DNA from: Escherichia coli
GTDB lineage: Bacteria; Pseudomonadota; Gammaproteobacteria; Enterobacterales; Enterobacteriaceae
Assembly (NCBI RefSeq): GCF_011045215.1
Contig: NZ_CP049201.1
Length of the DNA: 64,000 nucleotides
Reading direction: 5' to 3' (one strand)
Position numbers and translations under genes: made by a program
Part shown: positions 270-32,948 of the stretch, piece after piece
How positions within the stretch are numbered: the stretch's first letter is position 1
Layout: every line of letters begins with the position of its first letter
The notes under the pieces: model-generated
What the model was told of the DNA's origin: nothing
The model's database searches: none
Seen by the model: only the letters and a program-made list of their open reading frames with translations

Positions 270-279
270 AGGAGCCATC

Positions 280-1191: not shown

Positions 1192-1275
1192 ATCCCCCTT
1201 CACCTAACCCTCTCCTCAAAGGGGAGATGGCAGAGTGAGGGCATCAGACAGTTAAAATTTAAAAAGGATTTCCTA

Positions 1276-2280: not shown

Positions 2281-2327
2281 TCACCACCCGGTGCGTCGTA
2301 GGGTGCACCGGGTCTCAGGAGAACATC

Positions 2328-3731
2328 ATGGGTAAGTTCAAATTTCCCTCCGCATATACCATTCTCTTTTTTCTGATTGCCATCGTTGCCGTCCTGACGT
2401 GGATCATTCCAGCCGGGCAGTATCACATGGCAATGAACGAAGCTCTCGGCAAGGAGGTTCCTGTTGCCGGCACCTATGCACACGTAGAGGCCAATCCGCA
2501 GGGACTGATTTCAGTGCTGATGGCCCCAATTGCCGGGTTGTATGATCCAGACTCCGGTCAGGCTAGGGCGATAGACGTTGCGCTGTTTATTCTGATCATC
2601 GGAGGATTCCTCGGGATCGTCACCAAAACCGGGGCCATTGACGCCGGAATCGAGCGCGTCACCACCCGACTACGTGGTCGCGAAGAGTGGATGATCCCGA
2701 TCCTTATGGCGCTGTTTGCTGCTGGCGGTACAATTTACGGCATGGCCGAAGAATCCCTGCCGTTTTATACCCTGCTGGTGCCGGTGATGTTGGCAGCACG
2801 CTTCGACCCTGTGGTAGCCGCCTCCACCGTGCTGCTCGGCGCCGGGATCGGCACGCTCGGTTCCACCATTAACCCTTTCGCGACGGTGATCGCCGCCAAT
2901 GCAGCCGGGATCCCCTTCACCAACGGTATCACCTTGCGTGTGGTGGTGCTTGTCATCGGCTGGATAATCTGCGTGACATGGGTGATGCGCTATGCCCGGA
3001 AAGTTCGCAAGGAGCCGTCTCTCTCCATTATTGCGGATAAACAAGAGGAGAACCTCGCCCACTTCCTCGGCAATAAAAGCGAACAGGCTCTGGAGTTCAC
3101 CCCGGTACGCAAAATTATTCTGGTGATTTTCGCCCTTACCTTCGCGGTCATGATCTACGGCGTGGCGGTGCTGGGTTGGTGGATGGCGGAGATCTCAACG
3201 GTATTTCTGGCCAGCGCAATTATCATCGGCCTGATCGCCCGCATGAGCGAAGAGGAACTGACCTCTACCTTTATCAACGGCGCGCGAGATTTGCTGGGCG
3301 TTGCACTGATTATCGGTATCGCGCGCGGTATCGTAGTGATCATGGATAAAGGTATGATTACCCATACTATTTTGCACTACGCCGAGGGAATGGTTACTGG
3401 ATTATCGACAGTAGCATTCATCAACGTGATGTATTGGCTGGAAGTGGTGCTGTCGTTTCTTGTGCCTTCTTCGTCCGGTCTGGCCGTTCTGACGATGCCG
3501 ATCATGGCACCTCTTGCCGACTTCGCTAACGTCAACCGCGACCTGGTAGTTACGGCTTACCAGTCTGCGTCCGGTATCGTTAACCTGATCACTCCCACCT
3601 CTGCCGTTGTGATGGGCGGACTGGCTATCGCCCACGTGCCTTACGTGCGATATCTGAAATGGGTTGCGCCGCTGCTTGGGATATTAACAGTGGTAATTAT
3701 GGTGGCATTAAGTCTGGGGGCATTGTTGTAA
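2328..3731 (+). CDS. YfcC-family polytopic membrane transporter (putative arginine/ornithine exchanger of the ADI operon)
   Basis: 467 aa, multiple hydrophobic helices, Gly/Ala-rich segments; positioned between OTC and the ArgR-like regulator. Confidence 0.75.
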   Translation: MGKFKFPSAYTILFFLIAIVAVLTWIIPAGQYHMAMNEALGKEVPVAGTYAHVEANPQGLISVLMAPIAGLYDPDSGQARAIDVALFILIIGGFLGIVTKTGAIDAGIERVTTRLRGREEWMIPILMALFAAGGTIYGMAEESLPFYTLLVPVMLAARFDPVVAASTVLLGAGIGTLGSTINPFATVIAANAAGIPFTNGITLRVVVLVIGWIICVTWVMRYARKVRKEPSLSIIADKQEENLAHFLGNKSEQALEFTPVRKIILVIFALTFAVMIYGVAVLGWWMAEISTVFLASAIIIGLIARMSEEELTSTFINGARDLLGVALIIGIARGIVVIMDKGMITHTILHYAEGMVTGLSTVAFINVMYWLEVVLSFLVPSSSGLAVLTMPIMAPLADFANVNRDLVVTAYQSASGIVNLITPTSAVVMGGLAIAHVPYVRYLKWVAPLLGILTVVIMVALSLGALL

Positions 3732-3811
3732 TTTGCCGGATGGCGCTGCCCCTATCCGGTCTACGGAATGGTGTGGTGTCACCGGTTATTTCGAGAACTG
3801 AATATAGGATT

Positions 3812-4291
3812 ATGATGGATTACGAAGATTTCTCTCCCAAAGAGCAACTACAGCTAACGGTCTGCCAACGTCTGATTGCAGAAAAGAGCTATTTTTCCCA
3901 AGAGGAGCTCCGCCGCGACTTACAGGAGCGTGGTTTTGAGACAATCAGCCAGTCCACCGTTTCTCGTCTGCTCAAGTTGTTAGGTGTCATAAAAATTCGA
4001 AATGCCAAAGGGCTAAAAGTCTATTCGCAGAATCCACAGTTGCGTCCGGCTCCTGATGCCGCGCGCACTGTGTCCGAAATGGTGGTGAGCGTTGAGCACA
4101 ATAGAGAATTTATCCTTATCCATACCGTTGCTGGATATGGCCGCGCAGTGGCACGTGTCCTTGATTATCACCAGTTGCCAGAAATTTTAGGCGTGGTGGC
4201 CGGAAGCAGTATCGTCTGGGTCGCTCCTCGGATGGTGAAGCGTGTCGCTCTGGTGCATAAGCAAATTAATTATTTACTAAGAACGTATTAA
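3812..4291 (+). CDS. ArgR-family arginine repressor-like regulator
   Basis: About 159 aa from the ATG at 3812 (the ORF-track start at 3659 is probably too far upstream); resembles ArgR in the N-terminal winged-helix (...SQSTVSRLLKLLGVIKIRNAKG...) and C-terminal oligomerisation region. Confidence 0.78.
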   Translation: MMDYEDFSPKEQLQLTVCQRLIAEKSYFSQEELRRDLQERGFETISQSTVSRLLKLLGVIKIRNAKGLKVYSQNPQLRPAPDAARTVSEMVVSVEHNREFILIHTVAGYGRAVARVLDYHQLPEILGVVAGSSIVWVAPRMVKRVALVHKQINYLLRTY

Positions 4292-4484
4292 TATTCACAA
4301 ATGCCCGCTTGTATTGACTAATACATACATTAAATCGCTTCATTCGCAAAGCGAGTTTCCTATAATGCCTGATAATGTGCCAGGAGGGAGCATAGTCAAG
4401 CGTGTACGATATAACGTCTCACCGCGTCTGAAATCAGACACTGGCTTGGTGTTTTATTCCCGTTGCTTAATCTATTCCTTGGGT

Positions 4485-4508
4485 CCCTCATTTGAGGGGC
4501 TTTTTTTG
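4485..4508 (+). terminator. Intrinsic terminator (GC stem ccctc/gaggg plus T7 run)
   Basis: Hairpin 4485-4498 followed by tttttttg; ends either the arc operon read-through or a short transcript starting near 4370. Confidence 0.5.
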
Positions 4509-4528
4509 CTCGGCATCAGGAGATAAAC

Positions 4529-4678
4529 ATGAATCCGTTTTATCAAAAAATAAATGCCCCTAGCCGCGAAGTGCTGGAGCTCGTTCTAAAAATCGCAGCA
4601 AAAATTGAAAACCATTCCTCAACCATCGCGGCGTTCGTATGCGCCGCCAATGATGCGCCCGAAAACGCGTCAATATGA
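4529..4678 (+). CDS. Small hypothetical ORF (49 aa) whose 3' end lies in a 63-bp repeat
   Basis: ATG at 4529 preceded by AGGAGA; translation MNPFYQKINAPSREVLELVLKIAAKIENHSSTIAAFVCAANDAPENASI; the last 14 codons recur at 4955-5017. Confidence 0.25.
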   Translation: MNPFYQKINAPSREVLELVLKIAAKIENHSSTIAAFVCAANDAPENASI

Positions 4679-5043
4679 GTTCGCCGGAATATTACTCTGC
4701 TGTCGGGAGTTGAACGCCTGACGACAGGAAATGAGCCAGGCCAGCCACCACGCGGGCTGACAGCGAATCAGAACCTGAGTCAGCCCGGAGCCATTCCCGG
4801 GGCTGCACTTCATCACCTGCCACCAGTACCCGTGTCAGTACTTCGCGACCTGACGCAATTATCCGACTCAGTCCTTCAGAACCCGCCTCCGATACCAGCC
4901 TGGCGCTCGCCCCTGCGCAAGCAAAATAAATCAACCATTGTCAGACTGCGATCATTCGTATGCACCGCCGATGACGCGCCCGAAAACGCGTCAATATGAG
5001 TTCGCCGGAATATTACTCAATATGAGTTCGCCGGAATATTACG
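4634..5043. repeat. Direct repeats: 63-bp unit at 4634-4696 and 4955-5017; 26-bp subunit (caatatgagttcgccggaatattac) in three copies at 4671-4696, 4992-5017, 5018-5043
   Basis: Read directly from the sequence; lies between the ADI operon and the cdiI terminator. Confidence 0.8.
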
Positions 5044-5065
5044 CCTAGCTGGGGGTTTTCTGTGC

Positions 5066-5096
5066 ACAAAAAAATCCCGGCATAATGGCCGGGATT
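5066..5096 (-). terminator. Intrinsic terminator of the cdi operon (minus strand)
   Basis: Palindrome atcccggc...gccgggat followed on the minus strand by a T7 run, just downstream of the cdiI stop. Confidence 0.6.
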
Positions 5097-5110
5097 TGCG
5101 AGCTTTCCCA

Positions 5111-5485
5111 CTATTTCTTGATTCCTAAACGGAACATATCAGTTGGGAATAAAGGTTGTATTATCACTTCATCATTAAAAATGAATAATTTGGGCGATAA
5201 AGCTGTTACGTCATAGATATTTTCAGCGATTAATCTTAGATTTGACCTAAAAACTGGAATACTTGCATCATCTACAAAGACAAACATGTCATCGTTTTTT
5301 ACAGAGTTTGCACACAATAGCTCATCAAAACTCTCATAATCAGAATGCCAGATCTCTGACCAAGTAACACTTCCTTTCGCGAGAGGGTACTTATTTAAAA
5401 TGCCCAGAGCCTCCTGCTGAGCCAGCCCCTCTACTATATTAAAATCAGCACTCAGTGCTTCCCGACACTCATCAAATAAAGTCAT
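5111..5485 (-). CDS. cdiI: CdiI immunity protein (cognate to the CdiA-CT encoded at 5494-6246)
   Basis: 124-aa acidic protein starting 5 nt after the cdiA stop codon; position and size typical of cdiI. Confidence 0.75.
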   Translation of the reverse strand: MTLFDECREALSADFNIVEGLAQQEALGILNKYPLAKGSVTWSEIWHSDYESFDELLCANSVKNDDMFVFVDDASIPVFRSNLRLIAENIYDVTALSPKLFIFNDEVIIQPLFPTDMFRLGIKK

Positions 5486-5490
5486 TTGCT

Positions 5491-8400
5491 CTACCTGTTT
5501 AGCTGTTTCAATATTGTTTCAAAAGACTTTTCATTGCCTTCAAAAGGTATGACTTGCTTCACCGCTTTTCCAGGGCCTTTACCCTGCGAGTAATCCCATA
5601 TATTGATGTGTGTGCCTTTTTCAGGATCATAATCAACACGCCAACCAACTTTTCCGTCGCTGGATTGCCGCCCTATGACTTTCCCATTACCAGCGCTGAC
5701 TTCCAAACGTCCGATAACTGGCTTAGAGTCCGCTCCTAAATTACCTACAAGATCCAATGCCTTGTTTCGAGCAGTTTCCCAGTTTTTCTCTGGCTTGAGG
5801 ATTTGTTCAATTTTAGGCTGGGAATTCCCTTTAACCTTACTAATTCCCCCAAATGCTGACGCCGCAGCGCTCGCGACTATTCCCGCCTGAACTTCATCCA
5901 AACCGTATTCTTCTTGGAGTGCTTCCGAGACTTTGTTGGTCGCGACAACCCCTTCAGCCTGCATTTGCTGCGCAAAAGTCGCCGTCAGATCGTAGACCAT
6001 TTTGATCGGGATATCTTCACCCAGAGCACGATCTATTGCCTGCTTCACCGCCAGACTGTCAGTCAGTACATCACCGTATTTCTGCTGGCAGGTTGCCGGG
6101 CTGGCTGCACAGTCACTGATCAGTTGCTTTTGCTGTGCCGTACTCAACTCTTCGTACTTTTTGATAATACCGCCGCAGTCACCGCCTTTCGCCTGACAGG
6201 ACTTCATTTCAGCGGACCAAGCATCTATCTGCTTACTGCTCAGATAGTTATTCTCAACAGTTGTCTTACCTGACTGTGCGCCGGCTACCGCTGAAGCCCC
6301 CGAGTCTCCCACCAGACCACCGGCCAGGCCGGCAGCAACCGTTGCCAGTGTCGAGACCGTCTGCTTCTCTGTCTCGCTCAGTTCACTCACCGGCTTACCG
6401 TACATCTGTGTGGCTATCATTCCCACCACCTCGCCGGTGGCTGCACCTGCAGCACCGGCAAGGGCATTCTTACCCTGTGCCAGAGACAGGGCGGCATTCA
6501 CTACTGCATGAGCTGCCACACGCCCCGCACCGTCCGGGGTGGTCTGTTTGATAATTTCAGCAATATACGGCGCTGCACCACCTGCCAGGGCTGCACTCAG
6601 ATTACCGCCGGCCAGTCCCTGTACCGCTGCCGTTGCGGCCTGTATCGCCTGCTGGTATTTGCCTCCCGTTCCAAAACCGGAGGCTGCCATACCGTTATTG
6701 TAGGCCCGCTGTGCCACATCCTGTTCCGTGTACGGTTTTCCTGCTGCCTCAAGCTCTGCGCGGGCCTGATTCAGTGCTGCCGGGTCCCGCTTCGCTTTCT
6801 CACCGGCTATCTGTCCTTCCGTTCTGGCAATATCTGCCACCTGGTTACCAATCTCACCAATGAGTTGCGCCTGCTGCAACCGCTGCTGCTCTTTTTCCCT
6901 GTCAAAGATGGGGGACAGCGTCTGGTTTGCATGCGCAACGTCACGGTTCAGGTCTGCCACATCCTGTTTCTGGCTCTGTGTATCCCGGATAGTGATATTC
7001 CCGGCAGACACAGCCGACTGCGTGGTACTGTCCGCATGGCCTTCATGATTTGCACCGACCAGCAGATTGTTTGCCATGTTCCCCAGGAAATTTCCGGCAA
7101 CACTGCCACCGGTACTGAGCCCTGCACTCTGATGTTCCGTTTTAAAGTCAGCCCGGTTTTCAGTGTCACTGAAGCCCAGTGTGCCGGTATCCAGCCTGTT
7201 TTTATCTGCCGTTGCCGTGGACGCAATCACCGCACCGTTCAGTTGCGTATGCTGTCCGGTGGTGACATCAAACCCGCCCCTGCCGGCAAAAATCCCCGTC
7301 TGCTCCTGTACACTGTCGTAGTTACTGTGCATTTTATCCCGGCTGAGGTTCACACTCGCCGAACCGCTCATGGACCCGAAAGTGAAGCTGCCTCCGGCGC
7401 TGGCATTCTGCTGCTTACTGTCATAACGGTCACTGTCCTGCTCACTGGTCAGTGTCAGATGACGACCGGCATCCACTTTCACCGTTTCACCGCCAGCCTG
7501 CGCGCCGGTAAGCGTGGTGTCCCGCCCGCTGATAATGGTCAGCCGGTTTCCCGCATCCACCGTGGTTTCTGTATGGGTGGTACCGTTGCCTTTTTCACTG
7601 CCCTTACCCTGGTTTGCGCTGGCTGACAGACTGAAACCAGGCCCTCCGGGCCCCACACCGATACCGACACCCACGCTGCCACCACTGGATGTGTTCTTTC
7701 CTTCCAGCTTTGACGTGTTTTCTGCTGATACCAGATTCACGTCACGGTTTGCCTGCAGCAGAACGTTGTTCCCGGCCTTTATCTGACCGCCCTGTATCGT
7801 CAGGTCACCATCCACGCCCTTCACGCCGGAGCCGGTGGCCTGAATACTGAGGTTATTACCTGCGGTCAGTGTACTGCCCTTCGCCACCGTCTGCTCTGAC
7901 TGCTGTTCTGATTTCGAAGACTGGCTGCCGTAAGAGAGGCTGATACCCACGGTATTGTTATTCTCTTTCTGGTTGCCCTGTGCTTCTGCCAGTCGTCCGG
8001 CCTGCACGGCCTGAGCCCCCGAGAGCGCGGCCTTCACCCCCTGCAGGGCTTCAAGCCGGCTGTTTCCGGCAGATTTCGCCGCCTGTACGGTCTCCACCGT
8101 CGTGTTCAGGGCGCTGCCCGCTGTGCCGGACAGGGCAAGCGTCAGACCGGAGGTTTTCTGCTCCACCGTATGTGTCTGCACATGCCGGTCAGTGGCGGCG
8201 GTAATGCTGACCTCCTTACCACTGAGTGCCATGTCCCTGCCGGCAATCAGGTCAGAGCCGTTGACGGTCAACCGGTTACCTGCCTGAAGGGAAACATCAC
8301 CGTGAACACTCCCCACCGTGCTGCCTTTCTGCGTGGTGTCTGTTGCGGTGTCCGTGACCTTCAGACTCTGGCTGCCCACGCTGAATCCCACACCTCCGGA

Positions 8401-11400
8401 GCTCATCAGTCCGGATTTTTTCTCCTGTTTCAGGTGTGTTTCACGGTTGCTTTCTGTCAGCGTTCCGATACTCAGGTTATTTCCGGCAGCCAGGGAGACA
8501 CGGTTATCCCCGGCCACACTGCTGCCCGTGACGTTCAGATTATGTCCGGCACCGATACTGACCGTATCCCCGTTCAGTTCACTGCCCGTCATGGTCCGGC
8601 GGTCAGTGACATCATGCGTGGTAGTGGTGGTTTTCGATAACATCCCGCTGTTGCCGGTCACTTTATGGTATTCATCCAGCGAGCGGGTATTCTGTGCACC
8701 GGTCAGCGTCACGTCATGACCCGCCATCAGGGCCAGGCCTTTCTGAGCTGACAGCGATGCCGCCTGTGACGTCATATCCCGTCCGGCGGTCAGCGTGACA
8801 TCACCGTTACCGGCAAGTGTGCTGCCCGTATTCTGTGTGACGCCCTGCGACAGACGATTATTTTTATCCCAGGTAATATTGTCCTGCGCGGATGTGGTCA
8901 CCGTGGAAAGCGTCATATCCCTGCCGGCACTGAGTTGTGTCAGGCTGTCCTTACCCTGATTCACCACCGTTGCCGCCGTCAGATTCATATCCCGTCCGGC
9001 CTGCAGCACCAGTCTTCCCTGGTCGTTCTGCACATACACGCCGGCCACACTGTCGATACTGGTACGTTCAAAATGGTTCTGCCCGGCGTCGCGCTGTGCC
9101 GTACGGGTGGTGGTGGTCAGACTGATATCCCGTCCGGCCATCGCCAGCAGGCTGTCCGTGGCCTGCAGCAGCCCGCCGGTACTGTTAATATCCGTCCGGG
9201 CCGTCAGGCTGACATTTGCTCCCTGAATGGTGCCGGCCTGGTTGTGAATGTTTTCTGCACTGAGCTGCACGGCCTGCTTCCCGGCCAGTTTACCGCTGTT
9301 AAACAGGTCACCATCCAGCTTCATCACCATGTCCCTGCCGGCAATCAGCGCACCGGCACTGTTCACATCACCGGGTTTTACACGGGCATACACCTGAGGT
9401 ACCTGAACCGTCTGCGTGCTGCCGTCCGGCAGTGTCACCGTGGTGTTAACCAGCCAGACAATATCACCGGTCAGTAACGCCATCTGCTCAGCAGTCAGCG
9501 CCACACCTGGTGTCAGGTTGTATTGCTTACCAAATGCAATACCCGCATCCATTAACGCCTTAAACTGCTCTTCATCATTACTGTATCCGTCCAGGTACCG
9601 TTGCCCGGTCAGAGCGACAACCTGCTCACGAATCAGACGCTGTTCGTAAAAACCATCCCCCAGGCGTTTGAGCATGTTATCCCCGTTCTGAGAAAACGCC
9701 TTCTGCATGTAATCACTGCCCAGCCACGTCTTCTGGTTCGTAAAACGCGGGTCCGTTTCAACCAGATATGGCACATTCACTGCCGGATTTGTTTTAAACA
9801 GGCTGCTGTCCGGCAGACGGGTATCCGGCCCGGCAACATGGATACTGCCCTGAGGTGCGCTGACTTCAAACTGCTGCCCCGGCAACAGAATGACCGGTTC
9901 ACCGGCTGACACCACCGGGCGAAGCGGTATCCGGTCAGTAACGGCTACTGTCGCATCCACATTTCCGGTCAGTCCTGTCTGTACATCCGTTCCCTGTGGC
10001 TTCAGGGGAGAAAGCGTGACCTGGCTGCCCTGAACCTGTCCGTGGCTGGTGAGCTCTCCCGGCTTCAGCGTGATGGTCTGAATGACGGGGGGCGGCTCGT
10101 AAGGGGAAATTCTTTCCCCCTGCCTGTCATTTTTATTTTTTCTTTTTATCCGGTAATAATATGTGGATGTCCCTTTATCAGTAACATGGCGCTCTCCGCT
10201 GACACTGACGTTTTCCACATCACCGGCCTGCATATCCAGCAGACCACCTGCAACCACCTGGCTCTTGTCATTAAGCAGTTTGTCTGCCACAACCGTCATG
10301 CCGGCACCGGACAGTATTTTCCCCGGGTCGGAGTCTTTTACCCGGGTTTCCTCCACGGTACGGGTGTATTCATATTTTGTGAACCGGTCGTTGTTATGTC
10401 CGGTATCATCCGGCGTGTTCAGGTTCAGCAGTCCATCAGAGGAGTTGTTATCAATGAACACCCCCTCATCTTTTGCATTCCAGCGGACATCTGACCCGCG
10501 ATGCTGATACTCAGTCACCTTTTCCGTGGAGACCACCACGCGCTCCGTGGTGAAATGGTCATTGACGTTATTGATTTGCCCGGCACTCAGTGTCAGGGAA
10601 CCGGCGGCTTCAATCGTGGCACTGTGATTATTCAGTACACCGGCTTTCCCCGTGGCGGCGCCATTCGCATCCAGCATGCCACCGATATGCATATCACCTG
10701 CACTGTAAATCAGGCTGTGCGTCCGGTTATTCAGGGTCTGTACCCCCAGGTCCACACGCTCACGTCCGGCCAGCGTCGCCGCCACGCCATTTTCATCCAG
10801 ATTATTAAATGTGGCAGCGCTGACACCAACAGCATCGCCGTAGATTCGCCCGGTACCGGAATTCGTCAGGGTGTTCGCCTGAAGATGCGTATATTTCCCG
10901 TCAATCAGCCCACGGTTCAGCAGTGTGTCCGTCACGTTAAGCCAGGTCTGCCCGGCACTGATTTCACCTTTCTCTGTGTTTTCAAGGCGGATGCTGTTCA
11001 GGTCAAGCCGGCTGCCTGCCAGCAGGCTGCCGGTATTAGAGACATCGCCATTAACGGAAAGCGTAAGGTTTCCGTTTGCAATGGTCTGACCACTGTTACT
11101 GAACGCTGTGTTACTTTTCAGCGTTATATCGCCCGGCGAAAGCAGTTTCCCGTCACCACCAAGCTGACCGACATCCACAGAGACTGACTGCCCGGCCTTA
11201 ACCACGCCGTCACGGTTCGAAAACGCCAGCTGACGGCCACTGACAGACAATGTCGCGCCGGAAGAGAGCACGCCATCATTATTACTGAGCGTCCTGTCTG
11301 CCATAACCGTAAGCGCCCTGTCTGCCAGAATACTGCCCTCCTGGTTATCAAGGTCCTGCGTCGTGATGTGTATTGTCTGCGCTTCCAGCCCCTGGCCGGT

Positions 11401-14400
11401 ATTCTGCGTGTGGCGATTGATAAACTGCAGGGCGTTCAGCGTAATGGCAGAACCACTGCGAATCAGACCAGAGACGTTGTCCACAACGCCCCGTACACTG
11501 TCGAACAGAATGTCGCCCACAGACTGTATCTGTCCGTGGCTGTTCTGCAGGCCTCCCGTATGCAGACGGAGTTCACCTTCACTGACCAGCCGGCCACCCT
11601 CACGGTTATCCAGCGAGGTGGTGCTCAGGTCAGCTGTCGTTTTCGCCCCCACGGTCCCGCCCCGGTTATCCATTGCTCCGGTACTGACAGTCAGTTCCTG
11701 CAGGCTGTTCAGCGTACCCCCTCTGTTATCCAGCGTCCGGCCTGCGCTATTAATGCTGATGCCTTTCCCCTGAATAAGACCGGACTGATTGTTCAGCGCC
11801 AGACTGTTCCGGCCGGGCAGACCGGTCGCCACAATCTGACCATTCGCCACCACCTGACCGGATGTATTGTTAACCACGCCTGCAGTCAGGGACAGCGCAT
11901 CTCCCGACAAAAGCACACCGGCAGTGCTGTCCAGTGTGCCGGCATTCAGCGTCATCGGGCCCTGACTGATAACCCCGCCCCGGTCACCACTGTTACGGTT
12001 GCTCAGTGTGTCAGCACGGAGATTCAGTGTGGCACCGCTCTGTATCAGACCACCTGCATCATTGCTGATATCCGTCGAGGAAAGGGTCAGTGACTGCTGT
12101 GCCACCAGTCTGCCGCCCTGATTATCAGAGCGGGTGACATCCAGCCTGCTGTTACCGTTGCTGACCACCGTCCCCTGCTGATTTTCCAGCACATTCAGGT
12201 GCGCATTCAGGTCCCCGCCGGCGGCAAGCGTCCCTTCCTGATTACTGACATCGCCACCACTCAGCAACATATCCGTCCCGGCCTTCAGTGCGCCTTTCTG
12301 GTTCATCAGCGTACCTGACGATATCTGTAATGACGCCTGACTCCCCAGCACGCCCTGACGGTTATCGAGCGTTCCGGCGTTCAGGGTCATATCCTTCTGA
12401 CCCGCCATAAATCCCTGCTGGTTATTCAGCATACCGGCCCGTACTGTCAGGGTACCGGCGCTGCTGATACCACCCCGTGTTTTCGTGTTCCGGTTACTGA
12501 GAACCCCGTCCTGTACATCCAGCGTCATGTCACTGCCGGACTGAATCAGACCATCATCAGAGACCAGTTCGCTGCCTGACACAGACAGCGTTTTCTGTGA
12601 AAGCAGTCTGCCGGACGTATTATCCAGCGCACCATCCAGCGTCACGGACAGCCCGTCAGACACCACCGTACCCTGGTGGTTATTCAGACTCCCTGCCGAA
12701 ATATCCAGCCTGCCGGCGGACTCCATTCGTCCCTCAGTATTGCTGACAGCCTGCTGTGTTTTTATCCTGCCCGTTCCGGCAGCAGCTGAAATCAGTCCGT
12801 TGTCGTTATTCAGTGCCTGTGTATTAATCAGGATGTCACGGCTGGCAATCAGACTTCCCTGCTGGTTATCCACGGCGCCGGTTGTCCTCACCTGCAGACT
12901 ACCTGACTGCGCCGCCTGCACTTTCCCCCTGCGATTATCAAGGCTCAGTGCATCCAGGCGCACCGCGCCATTTGCCGCAAGCAGCCCTTCCCGGTTATCC
13001 ACACCTCCCGGCAGGTTCAGTGAAAAATCCCCTGTTCCCGTCTGAATCAGTTTACCCCTGTGGTTTGACAGGCTCTGTGCTGATATCTGCAGTGTGTCGG
13101 CATTTATCGTGCCGTCATTATTGCTGAACTGCCCGGCAGTCCGGGCGGAAAGCGTACCGGCACTCAGTTGCGCATTTTGCGTGAACAGATTTCCGCTGCC
13201 TGCATCCAGCTCAGTATGTTGTCCCTGTATCCGGCTGTTGCTTAAATCCAGCCCCTGCCCCTTCAGTTGCATGTCCCCACCGGACAGAACCTGTCCGTGT
13301 GCCGCCAGTTCGCCGGTGGTACTGACAGTCAGGTTGCCCGCTGCCGCCAGACGTCCGTCATCTTTCACCCCGGCGGCCAGCAGACTCCGCTCACCGCCGG
13401 TCAGACGCGCTGTCTGAATCCGGGTGTTGCGACGTGATGCCACAGAGCCTGTATGGGTGAATACACCATCACTCTGTATCTGCGTATCCTGCCCCGCATA
13501 AACAGAACCACTGTTATGCAGCTCCCGGGTTGTCACCAGATGCACATCCGTTTTCGCACTGATACTGCCACTGTTTTCAATTCGTCCGTCAGCCGTCAGG
13601 GTAACCGCCCCTGCCTGCGCACCAATATGACCGGCGTTACGAACACCCACCCCCGTTTCCGTACCGACAAGGCGAATTTTTCCGGCATACATTCCACCAA
13701 GGCTGGACACATCCAGCGCCACCTGTGGCTGCGAAGAGGCATCAGCGGCTTTTTTCTCAGTCTGCCCGTGTGCAATATCCACATTGTTACGTCCGGTGGT
13801 CACTTTCAGGTCCTGCGCCCAGATACCCGCATTAATCTTCACAGACCGGGCAATGATATCGGTATAATCCGTGCGCGAGGCATCCATCCCTTTGCCCGTA
13901 ATCTGAATCTCACCACGTTCAACACTGAATCCGGTCAGACTGCCGTTTTTCATCTGAGGCTGCCCCGTGGTCAGCGTGGCCCGGTTCGCATTAATAAAAC
14001 CGCACCCGTCGCAACTGATGCCGGCCGGGTTCGCAATCACCACCTGCGCCTTTTTCCCGGCAACCTCAACAAAACCGTTCAACTGGCTGGGATTGCGACT
14101 GTTCACTTCATTAAGAATGATTCGGGCCTCTCCCTTCGCCAGCCACGGGTTACCGGCAACCATGCCGCCCAGTTGGGTCTGCACATTTTTATGCGAGTTA
14201 TTCAGAATGACACCCTGATGACTGACATCAAACTGACTGTAAGTATTGTGCGATACCCCACCTGCAGAAGGTGTCTGGATATTGACCTGAGGAATGCCGC
14301 TGGCTGTCTGCGTAATCGTGGGCTGCTGATGCCCCGGTGCGCCATGGTCTGCGACAATGCCTGCAGCACTGACAGAATGCACCATCCCCGAGGCCAGCCA

Positions 14401-14565
14401 CAGGGAGAATGCAAGCGATGTGACACGGCAGATACGTTGCCTGCGTGGATATCCTGTACGGGAGGAGGGTGATGCACCGGCGCGACCGGAACGGGCAATA
14501 TCTGCCACCACCATCAGCATTCCCCGGGCTTTGTTAAAAATAATGCGGTAACAATTTTTGTTCAT
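5491..14565 (-). CDS. cdiA: CdiA contact-dependent inhibition exoprotein (TpsA/filamentous-haemagglutinin family), 3024 aa
   Basis: N-terminal extended signal peptide MNKNCYRIIFNKARGMLMVVADIA; TPS domain; long Gly/Thr/Asn/Ser-rich FHA-type repeats; VENN motif at codons 6247-6258; 251-aa variable C-terminal domain. Confidence 0.95.
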   Translation of the reverse strand: MNKNCYRIIFNKARGMLMVVADIARSGRAGASPSSRTGYPRRQRICRVTSLAFSLWLASGMVHSVSAAGIVADHGAPGHQQPTITQTASGIPQVNIQTPSAGGVSHNTYSQFDVSHQGVILNNSHKNVQTQLGGMVAGNPWLAKGEARIILNEVNSRNPSQLNGFVEVAGKKAQVVIANPAGISCDGCGFINANRATLTTGQPQMKNGSLTGFSVERGEIQITGKGMDASRTDYTDIIARSVKINAGIWAQDLKVTTGRNNVDIAHGQTEKKAADASSQPQVALDVSSLGGMYAGKIRLVGTETGVGVRNAGHIGAQAGAVTLTADGRIENSGSISAKTDVHLVTTRELHNSGSVYAGQDTQIQSDGVFTHTGSVASRRNTRIQTARLTGGERSLLAAGVKDDGRLAAAGNLTVSTTGELAAHGQVLSGGDMQLKGQGLDLSNSRIQGQHTELDAGSGNLFTQNAQLSAGTLSARTAGQFSNNDGTINADTLQISAQSLSNHRGKLIQTGTGDFSLNLPGGVDNREGLLAANGAVRLDALSLDNRRGKVQAAQSGSLQVRTTGAVDNQQGSLIASRDILINTQALNNDNGLISAAAGTGRIKTQQAVSNTEGRMESAGRLDISAGSLNNHQGTVVSDGLSVTLDGALDNTSGRLLSQKTLSVSGSELVSDDGLIQSGSDMTLDVQDGVLSNRNTKTRGGISSAGTLTVRAGMLNNQQGFMAGQKDMTLNAGTLDNRQGVLGSQASLQISSGTLMNQKGALKAGTDMLLSGGDVSNQEGTLAAGGDLNAHLNVLENQQGTVVSNGNSRLDVTRSDNQGGRLVAQQSLTLSSTDISNDAGGLIQSGATLNLRADTLSNRNSGDRGGVISQGPMTLNAGTLDSTAGVLLSGDALSLTAGVVNNTSGQVVANGQIVATGLPGRNSLALNNQSGLIQGKGISINSAGRTLDNRGGTLNSLQELTVSTGAMDNRGGTVGAKTTADLSTTSLDNREGGRLVSEGELRLHTGGLQNSHGQIQSVGDILFDSVRGVVDNVSGLIRSGSAITLNALQFINRHTQNTGQGLEAQTIHITTQDLDNQEGSILADRALTVMADRTLSNNDGVLSSGATLSVSGRQLAFSNRDGVVKAGQSVSVDVGQLGGDGKLLSPGDITLKSNTAFSNSGQTIANGNLTLSVNGDVSNTGSLLAGSRLDLNSIRLENTEKGEISAGQTWLNVTDTLLNRGLIDGKYTHLQANTLTNSGTGRIYGDAVGVSAATFNNLDENGVAATLAGRERVDLGVQTLNNRTHSLIYSAGDMHIGGMLDANGAATGKAGVLNNHSATIEAAGSLTLSAGQINNVNDHFTTERVVVSTEKVTEYQHRGSDVRWNAKDEGVFIDNNSSDGLLNLNTPDDTGHNNDRFTKYEYTRTVEETRVKDSDPGKILSGAGMTVVADKLLNDKSQVVAGGLLDMQAGDVENVSVSGERHVTDKGTSTYYYRIKRKNKNDRQGERISPYEPPPVIQTITLKPGELTSHGQVQGSQVTLSPLKPQGTDVQTGLTGNVDATVAVTDRIPLRPVVSAGEPVILLPGQQFEVSAPQGSIHVAGPDTRLPDSSLFKTNPAVNVPYLVETDPRFTNQKTWLGSDYMQKAFSQNGDNMLKRLGDGFYEQRLIREQVVALTGQRYLDGYSNDEEQFKALMDAGIAFGKQYNLTPGVALTAEQMALLTGDIVWLVNTTVTLPDGSTQTVQVPQVYARVKPGDVNSAGALIAGRDMVMKLDGDLFNSGKLAGKQAVQLSAENIHNQAGTIQGANVSLTARTDINSTGGLLQATDSLLAMAGRDISLTTTTRTAQRDAGQNHFERTSIDSVAGVYVQNDQGRLVLQAGRDMNLTAATVVNQGKDSLTQLSAGRDMTLSTVTTSAQDNITWDKNNRLSQGVTQNTGSTLAGNGDVTLTAGRDMTSQAASLSAQKGLALMAGHDVTLTGAQNTRSLDEYHKVTGNSGMLSKTTTTTHDVTDRRTMTGSELNGDTVSIGAGHNLNVTGSSVAGDNRVSLAAGNNLSIGTLTESNRETHLKQEKKSGLMSSGGVGFSVGSQSLKVTDTATDTTQKGSTVGSVHGDVSLQAGNRLTVNGSDLIAGRDMALSGKEVSITAATDRHVQTHTVEQKTSGLTLALSGTAGSALNTTVETVQAAKSAGNSRLEALQGVKAALSGAQAVQAGRLAEAQGNQKENNNTVGISLSYGSQSSKSEQQSEQTVAKGSTLTAGNNLSIQATGSGVKGVDGDLTIQGGQIKAGNNVLLQANRDVNLVSAENTSKLEGKNTSSGGSVGVGIGVGPGGPGFSLSASANQGKGSEKGNGTTHTETTVDAGNRLTIISGRDTTLTGAQAGGETVKVDAGRHLTLTSEQDSDRYDSKQQNASAGGSFTFGSMSGSASVNLSRDKMHSNYDSVQEQTGIFAGRGGFDVTTGQHTQLNGAVIASTATADKNRLDTGTLGFSDTENRADFKTEHQSAGLSTGGSVAGNFLGNMANNLLVGANHEGHADSTTQSAVSAGNITIRDTQSQKQDVADLNRDVAHANQTLSPIFDREKEQQRLQQAQLIGEIGNQVADIARTEGQIAGEKAKRDPAALNQARAELEAAGKPYTEQDVAQRAYNNGMAASGFGTGGKYQQAIQAATAAVQGLAGGNLSAALAGGAAPYIAEIIKQTTPDGAGRVAAHAVVNAALSLAQGKNALAGAAGAATGEVVGMIATQMYGKPVSELSETEKQTVSTLATVAAGLAGGLVGDSGASAVAGAQSGKTTVENNYLSSKQIDAWSAEMKSCQAKGGDCGGIIKKYEELSTAQQKQLISDCAASPATCQQKYGDVLTDSLAVKQAIDRALGEDIPIKMVYDLTATFAQQMQAEGVVATNKVSEALQEEYGLDEVQAGIVASAAASAFGGISKVKGNSQPKIEQILKPEKNWETARNKALDLVGNLGADSKPVIGRLEVSAGNGKVIGRQSSDGKVGWRVDYDPEKGTHINIWDYSQGKGPGKAVKQVIPFEGNEKSFETILKQLNR
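5494..6258 (-). other. VENN motif plus CdiA-CT polymorphic toxin domain (251 aa)
   Basis: gttgagaataac (VENN) encoded on the minus strand at 6247-6258; Cys-rich segment (SCQAKGGDCGG...DCAASPATCQQ) right after VENN; distinct C-terminal domain ...GWRVDYDPEKGTHINIWDYSQGKG... Confidence 0.8.
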
Positions 14566-14580
14566 TCTGATAAACCTGAC

Positions 14581-15108
14581 TTATCTCTCCGGCACATCCA
14601 CAGCAAGCGGGTGCTGCACACGCCACTGGCGCGCCTCTTCACGACTGACCTGTGCACCCCGGAAATTCATCACCCGCAACCCGGTCTGCTGCCCACGGTG
14701 GTACAGCGAACGCCAGCACAGACGGGGAAAAATATCCTGCCGGACAAGACGACTCATATCCGGGGTATGTCCAAAAGGGGCAATCCAGTCACAGACCCAC
14801 ATCCGGTCGCCGCTGTTCCAGTCCGACTGAGGCATGAGAATTGCCGGCTGCGTAAGATAACGCGCCTCTGCCTCCGGGCTGAGCCAGGCCTGGCTCATGA
14901 AGAAAACCGGTCGCCCCTGCTCTGTTGCCACCACATACTGTCGGTGCTTAATCACCGGCAGCAGCAGGTCCGGCAGGGTATGCAGTGGCGCATCACGATG
15001 CAGGGGGGAGTGCATCCACAACCAGACGGCCGCCCCCAGGACTTCCGCCTCATTGACCGGCTCACCGGAATACAGGGGACTCAGAACGTCATATTTCCCG
15101 TTACGCAT
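14581..15108 (-). CDS. cdiC: CdiC, HlyC/TAAT-family lysine acyltransferase
   Basis: 175 aa; WLWMHSPLHRD ... HRQYVV ... WNSGDRMWVCDWIAPFGH closely parallel the HlyC motifs (WLWASSPLHRN ... NQYVLL ... WTSGDRKWFIDWIAPFGD, recalled from memory); sits between cdiB and cdiA. Confidence 0.85.
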   Translation of the reverse strand: MRNGKYDVLSPLYSGEPVNEAEVLGAAVWLWMHSPLHRDAPLHTLPDLLLPVIKHRQYVVATEQGRPVFFMSQAWLSPEAEARYLTQPAILMPQSDWNSGDRMWVCDWIAPFGHTPDMSRLVRQDIFPRLCWRSLYHRGQQTGLRVMNFRGAQVSREEARQWRVQHPLAVDVPER

Positions 15109-15117
15109 GAAACTTTC

Positions 15118-16857
15118 TCAGAAATCCCGGAACAGATTAAAACCGGCTGTCACATCACTCGTCATAAAACCCGCCGGCTTTGAAAACGGACGACCGATGA
15201 AAACGTCATAATCCGTACTGAACAGTTGCCCCCTCAGCCCCACAACACCACCAGCCAGATGACGTCCCACCAGGTATTCACTGCCGGCTCCCCCCACCTC
15301 GCCGTAATCCATTCCCAGATATAACTCCTGCTCCGGCAGTGGCGTACGCCAGGCCAGGTCGTTGCGGATATACCAGCCGTTACTGGCATTCAGCGTTCGC
15401 TCCCCGTCAAAACCACGAACCGTCCAGCGGTTACCGATGGCAAACTGTTCCTGTGGGGTCAGCGGGGTATTGCTCAGCTGGCGCTGATACCGGAAGGAAT
15501 AACTGAAGGGCTGCCCTGCAAGGGTAAAGGGCAGATTAAAGGATGCATTCAACTGCAGGATCTTACTGAGCGCCGTTGCCTCACCGAACGTTTCTTCCGG
15601 CGCCGGCTGTGCACCAAACCAGCGGGTTCCCCGTTGCCAGCTGACACCAGCATCCAGTGTGGCCTGAGAAATATAATGACGGTGCTGCAGCCCAAGTCGC
15701 CAGGCCGCTGTCTGCCGGCGCTGCACCTGGATTTCCGTATCATTAATGTAGTTACGCGACCTGCGGGCCTGAACATCGTAGGTCAGCACCGTTTTCTGCG
15801 TCCCGTTACGGTGCAGTACCCGGCTCAGCTGCATACCCAGATTCTGACTCTCGCCACTGTACTGGTAATCCTCAACCGCACCAGCTACCGTCTGATGGTA
15901 ATCGTAATCACTGGCGGTGACGGAAAACTGCCAGTAGCCGAAAGGCACAGAGTAATGGGCCGTGTAGTTTTTACTGCCCTTACCCCCGTAATGTGGAAAA
16001 TTACGGGTGGCAGAAACATACAGCAGGTCACTCAGGGAAAAAGGATTATCCAGAGAAAATGTTATACCACCGAGATAACGCCCTGTGCTGCGGGTACCTG
16101 AATCATCAAGCGAAAACCCCAGTCGCCAGTATTTGTCCTGTTTGCGGGTAATAAGAATGTCACTTTCCCCTGGCTGCTCACCGGGTACAATTTCCATATC
16201 AGCCTGCACACCCGGCAGTCGTTGCATATTCTCCAGCCCCTGCTCAATGTCCCGTAAATCCAGCAGAGAACCTTCGTGTGCCGGGAATGAGGAATACAAC
16301 TGAATATAGTCATCACTGTCCGGTGTCAGACGCACATGTCGCACAACACCGGGAATAACAACCAGCCGGAGGATACCGCTTTTTAAATCCTGCGAAGGTG
16401 CCAGAACACGGGTGGTGACATAACCATGATCGACCAGACGGTTCTGCAATGTACTCATCAGCAGATTAATTCCTTTCGCCCCCAGGCAATGCCCGACCGC
16501 CCCGTTGGCGATTTTTTGTAAAGGCAGCCAGTGTGGTAACGCATCAGCCCCCTCCAGTTCCGTCTGTTTAATCTGAAAACAGGGCGTTTCAACAGGAAAA
16601 TTAATCTTACGGGCAAAAGAGCCAGGTGCAGAAAGGCGAACATCAGGGGCTGAAGGCGTCAGTTGTTGCTCAAGGGCTTCCTGACGCTGCTGCTGAATGA
16701 TAAATGCATTATCTCCGCTACGCCGGACATCCGCGGCCTGAAGAGATAAAGGCGATAATAAAACAGACATCAGTGTCAGTGACAGCAAGGACGGACAGCG
16801 CCGGAATACGCTTTGTTCCTCAGCCCTCTCGTTCCTGCAACATAATTTTCCAGTCAA
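15118..16857 (-). CDS. cdiB: CdiB outer-membrane TpsB transporter (ShlB/FhaC/HecB family)
   Basis: 579 aa; signal peptide; POTRA-like N-terminal region and beta-barrel C-terminus ending in an aromatic residue; immediately upstream of cdiC-cdiA. Confidence 0.9.
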
Positions 16858-17448
16858 ACGAAAAACCTTTTATTCATGTCATACCAACAATCACCAGCCT
16901 CCTGACGATACCTCCCACCATGTTTTGCGATGGTACGCTACCGCCCTTCCGGTATTTACCCGCATCAACCGGTACCAGAATGTTGAGTAATAAATTTGTC
17001 AACTCTGAATTGGTTTAATTTTGATCATTATAGAATGAAGATCTGAAAATTCTCAATATTGCAGACATATCGATCGATATGTAGTTATCACGTAGTTATT
17101 TATTCCAACTAATATCGCAAAAGCAGCATATTGCAAAACTTATAACCACGGAGAACAAAAAACGACAGAAAATTATTCCGTAAGATGCTTCAAATACAGC
17201 CAGTCAACACTGAAAAAAGTGATTTTTGATTAAAATCATTGAAGTTTATGCAGTACAGAATCTGAGCGGTTCTCAGCGAAAGTCAGAAGAAAGGGAGGTG
17301 AGGTAAAAGGCAGAAATCAGAGTGACAGGAATGCACAAAAAGCAAAAAAAAATCAACAAAACAATAAATTAACATACCCCGAAAAAGCATCCGCAACGTA
17401 CCGGGTAATAACAACAATATCGTGTAAAACAACATTGTTCCGGAAGTT

Positions 17449-17640
17449 ATGTCTGAAGATATCCCGTTACCCAAAGTCGGTCAGCGATACAGAGACGATC
17501 ATGGTGCGCTTGTCACCGTAACCAGTGTTGAGGAAACCCGGGTGGTATTTATGCGGGACGGCTATCCACATCCCTGTATGCGGCCAATGTACAACTTTCC
17601 AGGAAAATTCAAACCCGAACCCCGGGAAGAAACAGAATAA
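17449..17640 (+). CDS. Hypothetical small protein (63 aa)
   Basis: ORF with a compact protein-like sequence (MSEDIPLPKVGQRYRDDHG...); no recognised domain. Confidence 0.3.
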   Translation: MSEDIPLPKVGQRYRDDHGALVTVTSVEETRVVFMRDGYPHPCMRPMYNFPGKFKPEPREETE

Positions 17641-17692
17641 AACGAAATTCCTGCCGGCAATCACACTGCCTGATGGCAGCATAATCCACTTT

Positions 17693-17926
17693 TTAATTCT
17701 CATCCCCGAAGACAAGCCCAGAAAACCACTCCGGGTGTTCACTGTATGCCGTGTTCAGCGCATCCCAGGAAACGTTTATATAAAAGCTGTCCTGCAATCT
17801 GCGGGTAACAACTTCTGCCAGGCGATTCCGGTTATCCGCCAGTCCGGCATAACCTCTCTCTGCCAGCCACTCATTCAGTTCATGTTCCAGAGACAGATTG
17901 ATAATATCGTAATCGGACCTTGCCAT
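17693..17926 (-). CDS. Hypothetical small protein (77 aa)
   Basis: ORF downstream of and co-oriented with the 207-aa gene; amphipathic, protein-like composition. Confidence 0.35.
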   Translation of the reverse strand: MARSDYDIINLSLEHELNEWLAERGYAGLADNRNRLAEVVTRRLQDSFYINVSWDALNTAYSEHPEWFSGLVFGDEN

Positions 17927-18012
17927 TCCCGTTTCCTTAGCACATGTTTTCAGGCACGGGTAAAAGTATAAAGAATGTCATACTGCTGCCAGAGCCCCCC
18001 CTGATGGTCGTA

Positions 18013-18636
18013 TCAGAGATGGTATGCCGGCACTTTGCGGGTTGTTCCCGTCAGGTTATCGTGCACCTCCACATTCGTTGTCACTACCGGCATTCCGCTC
18101 TGTCTTAATCTCAGGACATCAGCCGCAATACGCTGACTGCCAGACCAGAACAGCCCGTCCAGTGCGGTCACCAGTAAACCTGCTTCCAGCGCATACTTCA
18201 GCCGTTCACGGGACGCTTTCACTTCCCGGGCAACCTGCTGATATGGCAATGATGTGTTTTCATTCCCAACCACGCGACGAATACGGTGAGACAGATGATA
18301 CCGGAATGTATCCGGCACACCCGAAAGGCTGGCCTTCAGGCTGTACACGCAGCCAAACCGTTTATCGTTGAACACCACATTTTTCTGGCTGATGCCCCAT
18401 TCTTCACGCAGCGCGGCAATCAGTTGTGGTGTCCGGGTAAGCAGCAAGCGAAAAGGCAGCTCAAAACTGGTGACGTAATCCACATTCAGCAGTGCAATAC
18501 GCAGCCGTTCTTCTGGCCCGGCCCCTGTCTGCCGGCACTCATCCAGAACATCCTGCCACTGCCGACGAAGACGTGGAGATTCATTCAGTTCTGTAAAACA
18601 GTATTTATTCACCAGATAATCAATTCGTGTACGCAT
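18013..18636 (-). CDS. Hypothetical protein (207 aa)
   Basis: ORF with balanced composition; no recognisable motif. Confidence 0.45.
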   Translation of the reverse strand: MRTRIDYLVNKYCFTELNESPRLRRQWQDVLDECRQTGAGPEERLRIALLNVDYVTSFELPFRLLLTRTPQLIAALREEWGISQKNVVFNDKRFGCVYSLKASLSGVPDTFRYHLSHRIRRVVGNENTSLPYQQVAREVKASRERLKYALEAGLLVTALDGLFWSGSQRIAADVLRLRQSGMPVVTTNVEVHDNLTGTTRKVPAYHL

Positions 18637-18895
18637 AATATAGATTCAGGAAACAATAAAAGCTGAATAAGCCCATATTTCATTGGGAAAACTGCAGTGT
18701 CAATACCAAAATGTTGCTCAAATCGTAGTAGAAGTATGGGATGTAGCGTTCAGGGTATTAAGAAACTTTTAGTTGACTACGATTGGTAAAATACATTAAT
18801 TTTTATTGCGGTTGCGTTTAATAGACTGCGGAGCGTGTTAACGCTCTAAATAAAAGTACTTAAGATGGCATAAATGTTACAAGACCAGGATAATT

Positions 18896-19291
18896 ATGGC
18901 TGAATTTACTGTAAGATCGAAGGATGAACTCGAAAAAGCTCAAAACAGCAGAGCTGAAATTATAATTATTGAAGGAGAGTTAGCAAATAAAATTAAAAAA
19001 GCAAAGGCTGTAACAAAAGTAAGTGGTGTTGTTATTGCTGCCATGATCGCAACTTGTGCTACTATTCCACTCACTGGTGGAGGTTCTGTTTTAGCTGTTA
19101 GTTCTTTAGCTGCATTATCCGGACTTGATATCGCTGTTATTATTGCTGCAGCATCCATTGGTATTGCTCTGGTTATTACTGTTTTCCGCGATTACGAAGA
19201 AATTGAATTTAGCAATGGAAAGATGATATTAAAGTTAAAACGTAAAAAAACTGAGTCTACAACTGACAAAAATGAGAAAAAGCAGAAGTGA
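18896..19291 (+). CDS. Hypothetical small membrane protein (131 aa, two predicted TM helices, Lys-rich tail)
   Basis: AT-rich ORF; hydrophobic segments VSGVVIAAMIATCATIPL and LDIAVIIAAASIGIALVITVF. Confidence 0.45.
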   Translation: MAEFTVRSKDELEKAQNSRAEIIIIEGELANKIKKAKAVTKVSGVVIAAMIATCATIPLTGGGSVLAVSSLAALSGLDIAVIIAAASIGIALVITVFRDYEEIEFSNGKMILKLKRKKTESTTDKNEKKQK

Positions 19292-19598
19292 AAGGTCTGT
19301 GCATCGGAATATGAACATATTTTAGTAATATTTTAATAAATCGTAAAGCCTCTATATTCAGAACCACGAAATAGAGGTGTTTTAAACTGCAACTGTTATC
19401 TCAATTTTTATCGAGGCGCCATTAAAACAAATACCCCGTTCTGCTGTTTTCTGATTATGCCATGAGATTAAAAACACTAATTTTTGATTGAATTGTATAT
19501 ATACATTGTAATACAAGATTTAAATACATATTTCTTCTTTTTTATCTGTAATCTATTATTATCAATAATCACATGAACAATATCAGAGGCAACACATT

Positions 19599-20372: not shown

Positions 20373-20662
20373 TTGAGGAAGTAATGATACAAGCTACAGT
20401 ATTGGTGACGAATCTATAGACAAGGAGATAAAAACCAAATATCAGAATTATTTTTGATAGTGCTGGTAAAGAAGCGGTGTTTGATATCAGCATGTTTATC
20501 GGAAAAAAGCTTACCTGGAGCTTTGAAAAATTGCAAAGCAGGGCCTGACAATGAAGGCCCTAATACTGTACTAAATGTTAACTCAGTACCAAATCACAAG
20601 GAAAAGTATTTTTTCTGGTAAGATTCTATATACATAATAAATCACCTTATAGTTACAATAGG

Positions 20663-21166: not shown

Positions 21167-21280
21167 CCGTATTGCTGTTATTCTGGAAGTATTTTTAATA
21201 TTCGTATTGATAGTTCTCAGAGATATATCACACTCTAGATATTTTAATTAAGTATCAGTTCGATATCGGCATATTGTACA

Positions 21281-21644: not shown

Positions 21645-21738
21645 TTGTACCTGTCTCCCGGCGGCACCACGACTGAAATTCGTGTGAAGGCAAATCCACG
21701 CGATAACTTACGATAGTTCGGACATAAGCCCCCATAAT

Positions 21739-32938: not shown

Positions 32939-32948
32939 CTCTTTATCC

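Follow-up and report, generated by a model that had tools for sequence, protein, structure and literature searches.

Contact-dependent growth inhibition (CDI) loci in which a gene for a HlyC-family enzyme lies between cdiB and cdiA have been defined as class IV cdiBCAI loci (Halvorsen et al. 2021, PMC8510554). In the STEC4 system of this class, the receptor of the effector CdiA-STEC4 is the inner core of lipopolysaccharide (LPS), and CdiC attaches 3-hydroxydecanoate to Lys1467, which is located within the receptor-binding domain (RBD) in a basic stretch rich in Tyr (PMC8510554). In this study, we analysed a stretch of 64,000 nt from Escherichia coli (NCBI RefSeq assembly GCF_011045215.1, contig NZ_CP049201.1), hereafter referred to as the window, and found that positions 5111–16857 very probably represent an intact E. 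coli class IV CDI operon with the gene order cdiB-cdiC-cdiA-cdiI. This locus is of an already known kind, because the system type has been studied experimentally, a crystal structure of the toxin/immunity pair is available and the exact 3024-aa CdiA sequence is present in NCBI (QIF14235.1/WP_164475831.1, on a 5.41-Mb contig).

Organization of the cdiBCAI locus

The four genes are co-oriented on the minus strand and correspond exactly to the tightly spaced open reading frames (ORFs) recognized in a preliminary description of the window, with gaps of 9 nt between cdiB and cdiC, 15 nt between cdiC and cdiA and 5 nt between cdiA and cdiI. The first gene, cdiB (15118–16857), encodes an Omp85/TpsB outer-membrane transporter of 579 aa as counted from a TTG start codon. 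It is followed by cdiC (14581–15108; 175 aa), encoding a toxin-activating lysine acyltransferase (TAAT/HlyC family), cdiA (5491–14565, the end coordinate including the stop codon), encoding the 3024-aa class IV effector, and cdiI (5111–5485), encoding the cognate immunity protein of 124 aa with a pI of 4.33. The reading frames of all four genes are open across 11.7 kb.

A sigma-70 promoter-like site, which was recognized only by its consensus matches (TTGAGA, an 18-nt spacer and TATAAT; 11/12 matches), is located at 17027–17056, ~170 nt upstream of cdiB. This site lies inside the region of class IV homology, because the homology with other class IV loci reaches ~17200–17243. At the other end, an intrinsic terminator-like hairpin (5072–5097) with a 10-bp stem and a subsequent T run starts 14 nt past the cdiI stop codon. 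Both elements are on the minus strand and together bound the operon.

CdiB matches the Pfam families ShlB (1.6e-109), POTRA_2 (7.4e-23) and POTRA_3 (2.8e-17) and contains the Omp85 loop-6 motif VRGF at residue 480. CdiC matches the Pfam family HlyC (4.6e-32) and has His37 and Asp107 at positions identical to those of CdiC-STEC4, in which these two residues are catalytic (PMC8510554). Its sequence was found in exact form on 103 contigs and shows 99% identity to CdiC from another class IV locus.

CdiA begins with an extended signal peptide (14365–14565, minus strand), residues 1–38 of which match the Pfam family ESPR (1.9e-10). Signal cleavage is predicted to occur after VSA67, because an AXA motif is present there and the two-partner secretion (TPS) domain begins at residue 68. 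This TPS domain (13576–14364, minus strand; residues 68–330) was detected by both Pfam TPS (2.4e-57) and TIGR01901 (1.5e-21) and contains the motifs NPSQL158 and NPAGI179. It is followed by a beta-helical filamentous haemagglutinin repeat region (FHA-1; 10567–13575, minus strand; residues 331–1333), which was defined by matches to TIGR01731 (1.6e-54 across 12 stretches) and many Pfam Fil_haemagg matches. A second repeat region (FHA-2; 7216–9045, minus strand; residues 1841–2450) was defined by the Pfam family Fil_haemagg_2, with a best match of 2.3e-45 and four weaker ones. Further downstream is the PT-VENN pretoxin domain (6238–6390, minus strand; residues 2726–2776; Pfam PT-VENN, 1.8e-20). 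The VENN motif itself is encoded at 6247–6258, starts at residue 2770 and is followed by 251 residues; it is the sole VENN in all six frames of the window. NCBIfam scans of the whole CdiA, its C-terminal region (CT) alone, CdiC, CdiB and CdiI yielded only TPS and repeat models.

These results agree with the preliminary description, in which the locus had been interpreted as a CDI system of the acyltransferase-containing variant from a TpsB transporter, a HlyC-like acyltransferase, a TpsA-type exoprotein of 3024 aa with an extended signal peptide and a VENN motif 251 residues from its end, and a small acidic ORF starting 5 nt past the cdiA stop codon. The profile searches suggested there (TPS, PT-VENN, TAAT and POTRA) recovered every named domain, and the variant corresponds to the published class IV cdiBCAI loci (PMC8510554). 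The same description had considered that the large protein might prove to be an adhesin only, with no PT-VENN domain; the clear match to PT-VENN speaks against this.

Receptor-binding domain and predicted acylation site

To place the effector among the CdiA classes, as had also been suggested, we used aligned homologues of the RBD, and the comparison with STEC4 was made through class IV loci of other strains together with STEC4-like fragments. The RBD (9736–10566, minus strand; residues 1334–1610) includes the Tyr-rich basic segment STYYYRIKRKNKNDR and, in a scan of CdiA residues 1100–2000, matches no Pfam family. Identity is 84% to the corresponding domain of the class IV relative F2_407_2_2 and ~84% to the STEC4-like fragments. 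The RBD also aligns with homologues from Cronobacter, Klebsiella, Photorhabdus and Brenneria, the identity to homologues in other enterobacteria being 35–47%. Val1334 of this CdiA corresponds to Val1328 of STEC4, and the numbering offset is consistent.

In the Tyr-rich segment, the sequence STYYYRIKRKNKNDR of the window is paired with STYYYRIRKKGK of the STEC4-like fragments, the latter of which agrees with the published residues R1465-K1466-K1467-G1468-K1469 (PMC8510554). Lys1476, within YYYRIKRKNK, aligns with the second K of the STEC4-like YYYRIRKKGK. Because the two segments align in this way and the acylated residue has been mapped in STEC4, we infer that Lys1476 (codon 10138–10140, minus strand) is the acylation site of CdiC and the equivalent of Lys1467. 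By every criterion that can be judged from the nucleotide sequence, the locus is a CDI system and belongs to class IV, the latter placement following from the gene order, the presence of CdiC and the RBD with its conserved, acylatable lysine.

C-terminal region and immunity protein

A phmmer search against 1.84 billion representative sequences identified 510 relatives of the CdiA-CT. Many of them align only to residues 1–146 after VENN and many others only to residues 145–255. Because the matches cover either part alone, they indicate that the CT is composed of two separately shuffled modules, a cytoplasm-entry domain (5812–6246, minus strand; residues 2774–2918) and a toxin domain (5494–5811, minus strand; residues 2919–3024).

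The entry domain contains four Cys residues (2790, 2797, 2819 and 2826, or C21, C28, C50 and C57 as counted from the V of VENN) that are invariant among 33 homologues, and according to a review, the MetI-dependent entry domain has a disulfide-dependent structure. No significant homologue of the entry domain was found in PDB with either the single sequence or a profile of 33 sequences; the best match was a motif-level one to the first Cys hairpin of the EC869 CT (E 0.11–0.43). Homology was detected to the entry domain of an orphan CT with an Endonuclease_NS_2 toxin in E. coli mip270_05 (E 9e-42); the identity is 45% within the entry domain and 37% when the whole aligned CT is considered. When toxins fused to homologous entry domains were surveyed for their Pfam domains, the matches were mostly short fragments with no toxin annotation, and EIQ74285.1 and WP_001081264.1 were not found among the cluster members.

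In tables published by the Hayes laboratory in 2022 and 2024, the 5T86-type toxin of E. coli EC1738 is assigned to the MetI-dependent entry family (family 1), which also carries Endonuclease_NS_2 toxins, and the 2024 table of E. coli toxin types gives MetI alone for the 5T86-type toxin. In view of these assignments, import through MetI appears to be the more probable route, although we hold this with less assurance than the assignment of the operon itself.

The toxin domain, known as E. coli 'toxin type 3', consists of 106 residues, all of which (106/106, 100%) are identical to chain A of PDB 5T86. An AlphaFold2 model of the domain (pLDDT 95) superposes on 5T86 at a TM-score of 0.96. The immunity protein is equally well defined: CdiI matches the Pfam family CdiI_ImmP (6.6e-34), is identical to 5T86 chain I at 121 of 124 residues, and was found in its exact form on 275 contigs.

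As for the activity of the toxin, it is given as 'unknown' in the 2022 and 2024 tables, a 2026 preprint terms the toxin BECR-fold and states that there is no mechanistic paper on it, and the NCBI label for one carrier of the toxin is 'tRNA nuclease'. Because the sources differ in this way, an RNase activity is retained only as the leading guess. In one of the criteria for membership among the BECR-fold RNase toxins, the toxin domain departs from that group. Six residues of the toxin domain (R48, R58, D60, D62, K65 and H68) are invariant or nearly so among 79 homologues and are candidate active-site residues.

Exchange of the toxin/immunity cassette

The CT and cdiI of the window are shared with a locus of different structure. 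E. coli mip270_05 (NZ_CM132658.1) carries a cdiBAI locus that lacks cdiC and encodes a CdiA of 3289 aa. Its left flank (arcC-argF-yfcC-argR) is 100% identical to that of the window, and its CT/cdiI module shows 99.85% identity over positions 4300–6259 of the window, whereas its right flank differs. This homology ends one base before the VENN codons (6258–6247), and upstream of VENN the DNA identity is ~65%, in one stretch of FHA-2 only. The CT of the window is also carried by strain 1303, on a 3188-aa CdiA of a different kind. Because the near identity to mip270_05 stops at VENN, these comparisons indicate that the CT and cdiI form a VENN-delimited toxin/immunity cassette that has been exchanged. 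The GC content, which drops from 57% in the backbone and 60% in cdiC to 44% in the toxin domain and 37% in cdiI (47% in the whole window), fits this conclusion. The locus thus provides an example of CDI modularity, in which a class IV backbone is joined at VENN to a cassette that also occurs on the CdiA of a locus with no cdiC.

Near other cdi loci, orphan VENN-CT/immunity arrays with Endonuclease_NS_2 and Ntox25 toxins were observed amid IS66 and IS110 elements (positions 7357–9909 in mip270_05 and 10903–14480 in C4). Orphan cdiA-CT/cdiI modules were not found in the window, which contains one VENN and one PT domain only.

Proposed mode of action

From the homology with CdiA-STEC4 and with other CDI systems that have been studied, the following steps can be proposed. 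CdiB would export CdiA as a surface filament with the RBD at its tip, and CdiC would move an acyl chain (3-hydroxydecanoate in STEC4) from acyl-acyl carrier protein (ACP) onto Lys1476. The lipidated, basic, Tyr-rich tip would then bind the phosphorylated heptose inner core of the LPS of a neighbouring cell. Export would subsequently resume, with FHA-2 taking the C-terminal region through the outer membrane of the target, and this region would be cleaved after VENN. The disulfide-stabilized entry domain would reach the cytoplasm via an inner-membrane protein, probably MetI, and the 106-residue toxin, for which an RNase activity is the leading guess, would then stop growth. Sibling cells would be spared through the binding of the toxin by CdiI.

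Alternative explanations

Several points weigh against the interpretation of the locus as an intact class IV CDI operon that acts in this manner. Expression, secretion, lipidation and killing are all predictions from sequence data, and the TTG start of cdiB, which was set mechanically, is uncertain. In the RBD, the differences from F2_407_2_2 cluster at residues ~1355–1400 and include a 3-residue insertion; this patch, which is located in the N-terminal half of the domain, is ~55% identical to other class IV effectors. The residues beside the acylated Lys are R and N here and K and G in STEC4. With regard to entry, the assignment to MetI is indirect, being derived from toxin pairings in the literature and from the homology to the Endonuclease_NS_2 orphan. 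The 5T86 toxin is listed under entry family 18 too, the receptor of which is given as unknown, and the nearest homologues of the entry domain are found in Lonsdalea (87%) and Dickeya (89% over the whole CT), both of which are among the genera given under entry family 18. Finally, selection on the locus may be weak, because its close relatives are often pseudogenised.

Most of these points bear on a first alternative, in which the locus encodes a functional CDI system with different targeting, recognizing another LPS core chemotype or another surface receptor, and/or entering by a route other than MetI (that of family 18). We regard this as unlikely, but as the least improbable of the alternatives. 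The RBD is only 84% identical to that of F2_407_2_2, in contrast to 99% for CdiC and ~95.6% DNA identity for the whole locus, with the differences concentrated in the patch and around Lys1476, and both the double listing of the 5T86 toxin (families 1 and 18) and the closeness of the entry domain to those of Lonsdalea and Dickeya would be compatible with another route of entry. However, this RBD retains both the acylatable Lys and the Tyr-rich basic motif, which argues against a different target. A different entry route is disfavoured by the 2024 table, in which only MetI is given for the 5T86-type toxin, and by the homology of the entry domain to the one fused to Endonuclease_NS_2, a toxin that is assigned to MetI in the same table.

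A related and slightly more doubtful proposal is that the toxin is not a BECR RNase and has an activity new to CDI toxins, while the diverged 45-residue patch in the RBD and the changed Lys context retune recognition to another LPS core chemotype. If true, a new toxin activity or a retuned LPS recognition would each add to CDI biology. Neither possibility is peculiar to the window, because the toxin and similar RBD variants are found in hundreds of E. coli genomes.

A second alternative to an intact, functional operon is that the locus survives only as a remnant, silent or in decay, with no role in competition, like its relatives in O157:H7 and bovine strains. These relatives (F2_407_2_2, C4 and O157:H7) show ~95–96% DNA identity across cdiB-cdiC-cdiA-cdiI and carry a CT/cdiI of the same family as that of the window (96% identical), and they are located beside hsdR/M48 genes and not beside the arc operon. 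In the matches from these strains, frameshifts or IS elements split both genes, cdiB being divided and cdiA being present in several pseudogene pieces, and other top class IV matches carry IS3 or ISEc8 insertions. No class IV locus was found at the end of the circular record of E. coli C5. The full-length CdiA of the window is, moreover, the sole member of its own 90% cluster. In the window, by contrast, the 11.7 kb contain four intact frames with preserved catalytic and structural motifs, and a terminator and a promoter-like site, the latter strong as judged from its consensus match, delimit the operon. We therefore consider it improbable that the locus is such a remnant.

Finally, the TPS, FHA-repeat and HlyC-family parts of this locus would also fit a host-directed TPS adhesin or cytolysin that has no antibacterial role and depends on an RTX-type acyltransferase for its activation, and a promoting effect of CDI effectors on aggregation and biofilm formation is known. 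Such an explanation is, however, hardly credible in view of the PT-VENN domain, the identity of the toxin to a crystallised CDI toxin and the immunity gene 5 nt downstream, and no RTX repeat, hemolysin family or other cytolysin domain was detected in Pfam scans that jointly span the whole CdiA.

Flanking regions and genomic context

The preliminary description had proposed that the locus is flanked by an IS200-related 27-mer and repeat scars, that it is located near a P4-type integrase, and that these features are consistent with horizontal acquisition. The 27-mer, GCCTAGCTGGGGGTTTTCTGTGCACAA, occurs as exact copies at 5043–5069 and 30800–30826, with 0 copies expected by chance. The first copy (plus strand), located directly past the cdiI terminator, is a 27-nt scar identical to the end of IS200C, and the second copy is at the 5' end of an IS200C copy and of the STnc490 RNA within it; the IS200 relationship was thus confirmed. 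The IS200C element is complete (~30110–30830) and lies between ycdU and the island integrase, with the STnc490 Hfq-binding RNA at 30691–30814 (Rfam, 146 bits).

Repeat scars were also found beside the locus. In the region 4634–5044, two direct repeats of 64 nt (4634–4697 and 4955–5018; 95% identical) are accompanied by a 26-nt tandem reduplication and flank a 324-bp fragment that is 98% identical to the DNA beside an IS66-family tnpC gene in mip270_05. The target-site duplication of IS66-family elements is ~8 bp, and the 64-nt duplication is much longer.

A tyrosine integrase gene (28731–29933) is located 11.9 kb from cdiB. Its product matched the PRK09692 integrase model (9.4e-55), but with a score below the curated cut-off of the model. 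No attachment site could be defined, because the window contains no tRNA gene. Strain 100181, which is 100% identical to the window over 42000–64000, shares ycdU and the IS200C insertion, then diverges from the window directly past IS200C and does not contain the cdi segment. The GC contrast, the absence of the segment from strain 100181 and the adjoining IS remnants are all consistent with horizontal acquisition of the locus.

The island cargo upstream of cdiB (17449–28543) comprises a DUF4222 gene, two inovirus Gp2-family genes, a fragment of a TOTE conflict-system primase gene, YfjI-family, DUF3987 and helix-turn-helix genes, an IS1 remnant and a gene for a 605-aa hypothetical protein with no NCBIfam match. 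On the other side of the cdi locus, positions 1–4530 are occupied by an arginine deiminase pathway island (arcC, argF, a yfcC-family transporter gene and an arginine repressor gene). These genes are followed by a small ORF annotated as 'pyrBI operon leader peptide' and a terminator hairpin (4481–4502). This island is 100% identical to that of mip270_05 (positions 1–4600) and is mostly present in ~350 E. coli records, approximately one-third of the matching places being on plasmids.

A second TPS pair is present at 45820–51340 (minus strand) and encodes a 539-aa ShlB-type transporter and a 1270-aa TpsA. The TPS domain of the latter is 44% identical to that of CdiA. No VENN motif, toxin domain or immunity gene was detected for this second TpsA, and it is probably an adhesin or a hemolysin-like exoprotein and not a CDI effector.

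Between ycdU and the second TPS pair is a gene cluster resembling those for fatty-acid/polyketide synthesis (31011–45804, minus strand). According to the annotation of strain 100181, it contains acpS and genes for a short-chain dehydrogenase/reductase (SDR), a FabZ-like dehydratase, an ACP, an aminomethyltransferase-family protein, two ketoacyl synthases (one of 852 aa), an ABC transporter, a LolA-like protein and a malonyltransferase. This cluster region resembles O-island 47 of O157:H7. Past the second TPS pair, a chaperone-usher fimbrial operon with an 840-aa usher is located at 52733–59357 (plus strand), and an EAL-domain gene is annotated in the same matching stretch of relatives. The segment 42000–64000, which covers the fimbrial operon, the second TPS pair and the last 3.8 kb of the synthesis cluster, was found in 417 of 5426 complete E. 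coli genomes.

Comparison with known systems

Our findings mostly confirm existing knowledge. Among complete E. coli genomes, the close class IV relatives that we inspected are either pseudogenised or disrupted by IS elements, and the intact copy in the window could serve as a clonable template for studying the activity of the 5T86 toxin, entry through MetI, and the variation of the RBD in relation to LPS recognition and lipidation by CdiC.

The toxin and immunity protein find their counterpart in 5T86, the CdiA-CT/CdiI complex of E. coli A0 34/86, which represents 'toxin type 3' (EC1738). That structure comprises the toxin domain and CdiI only; the entry domain, which precedes the toxin in the window, is not part of it.

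CdiC belongs to the same acyltransferase family as the activators of RTX toxins (HlyC, CyaC and ApxC) and has the same catalytic dyad. The substrates differ, however, in that the RTX activators act on an RTX protoxin and CdiC on the receptor-binding domain of the TPS-secreted CdiA, and the sequence contexts of the acylated Lys are unrelated between the RTX toxins and CdiA.

The closest described system for the operon as a whole is cdiBCAI-STEC4 of E. coli STEC_O31. The two loci share the gene order with cdiC between cdiB and cdiA, the residues His37 and Asp107 of CdiC, and a homologous RBD with a Tyr-rich basic segment and the acylated Lys, the site of acylation in the window being predicted. 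In both effectors, FHA-1 departs alike from those of classes I–III. The two RBDs are ~84% identical, with the 3-residue insertion and the diverged patch on the side of the window. The two loci also differ in their cargo: the STEC4 toxin is an Ntox25 ionophore, whereas the effector described here carries a 5T86-type toxin together with its own CdiI.

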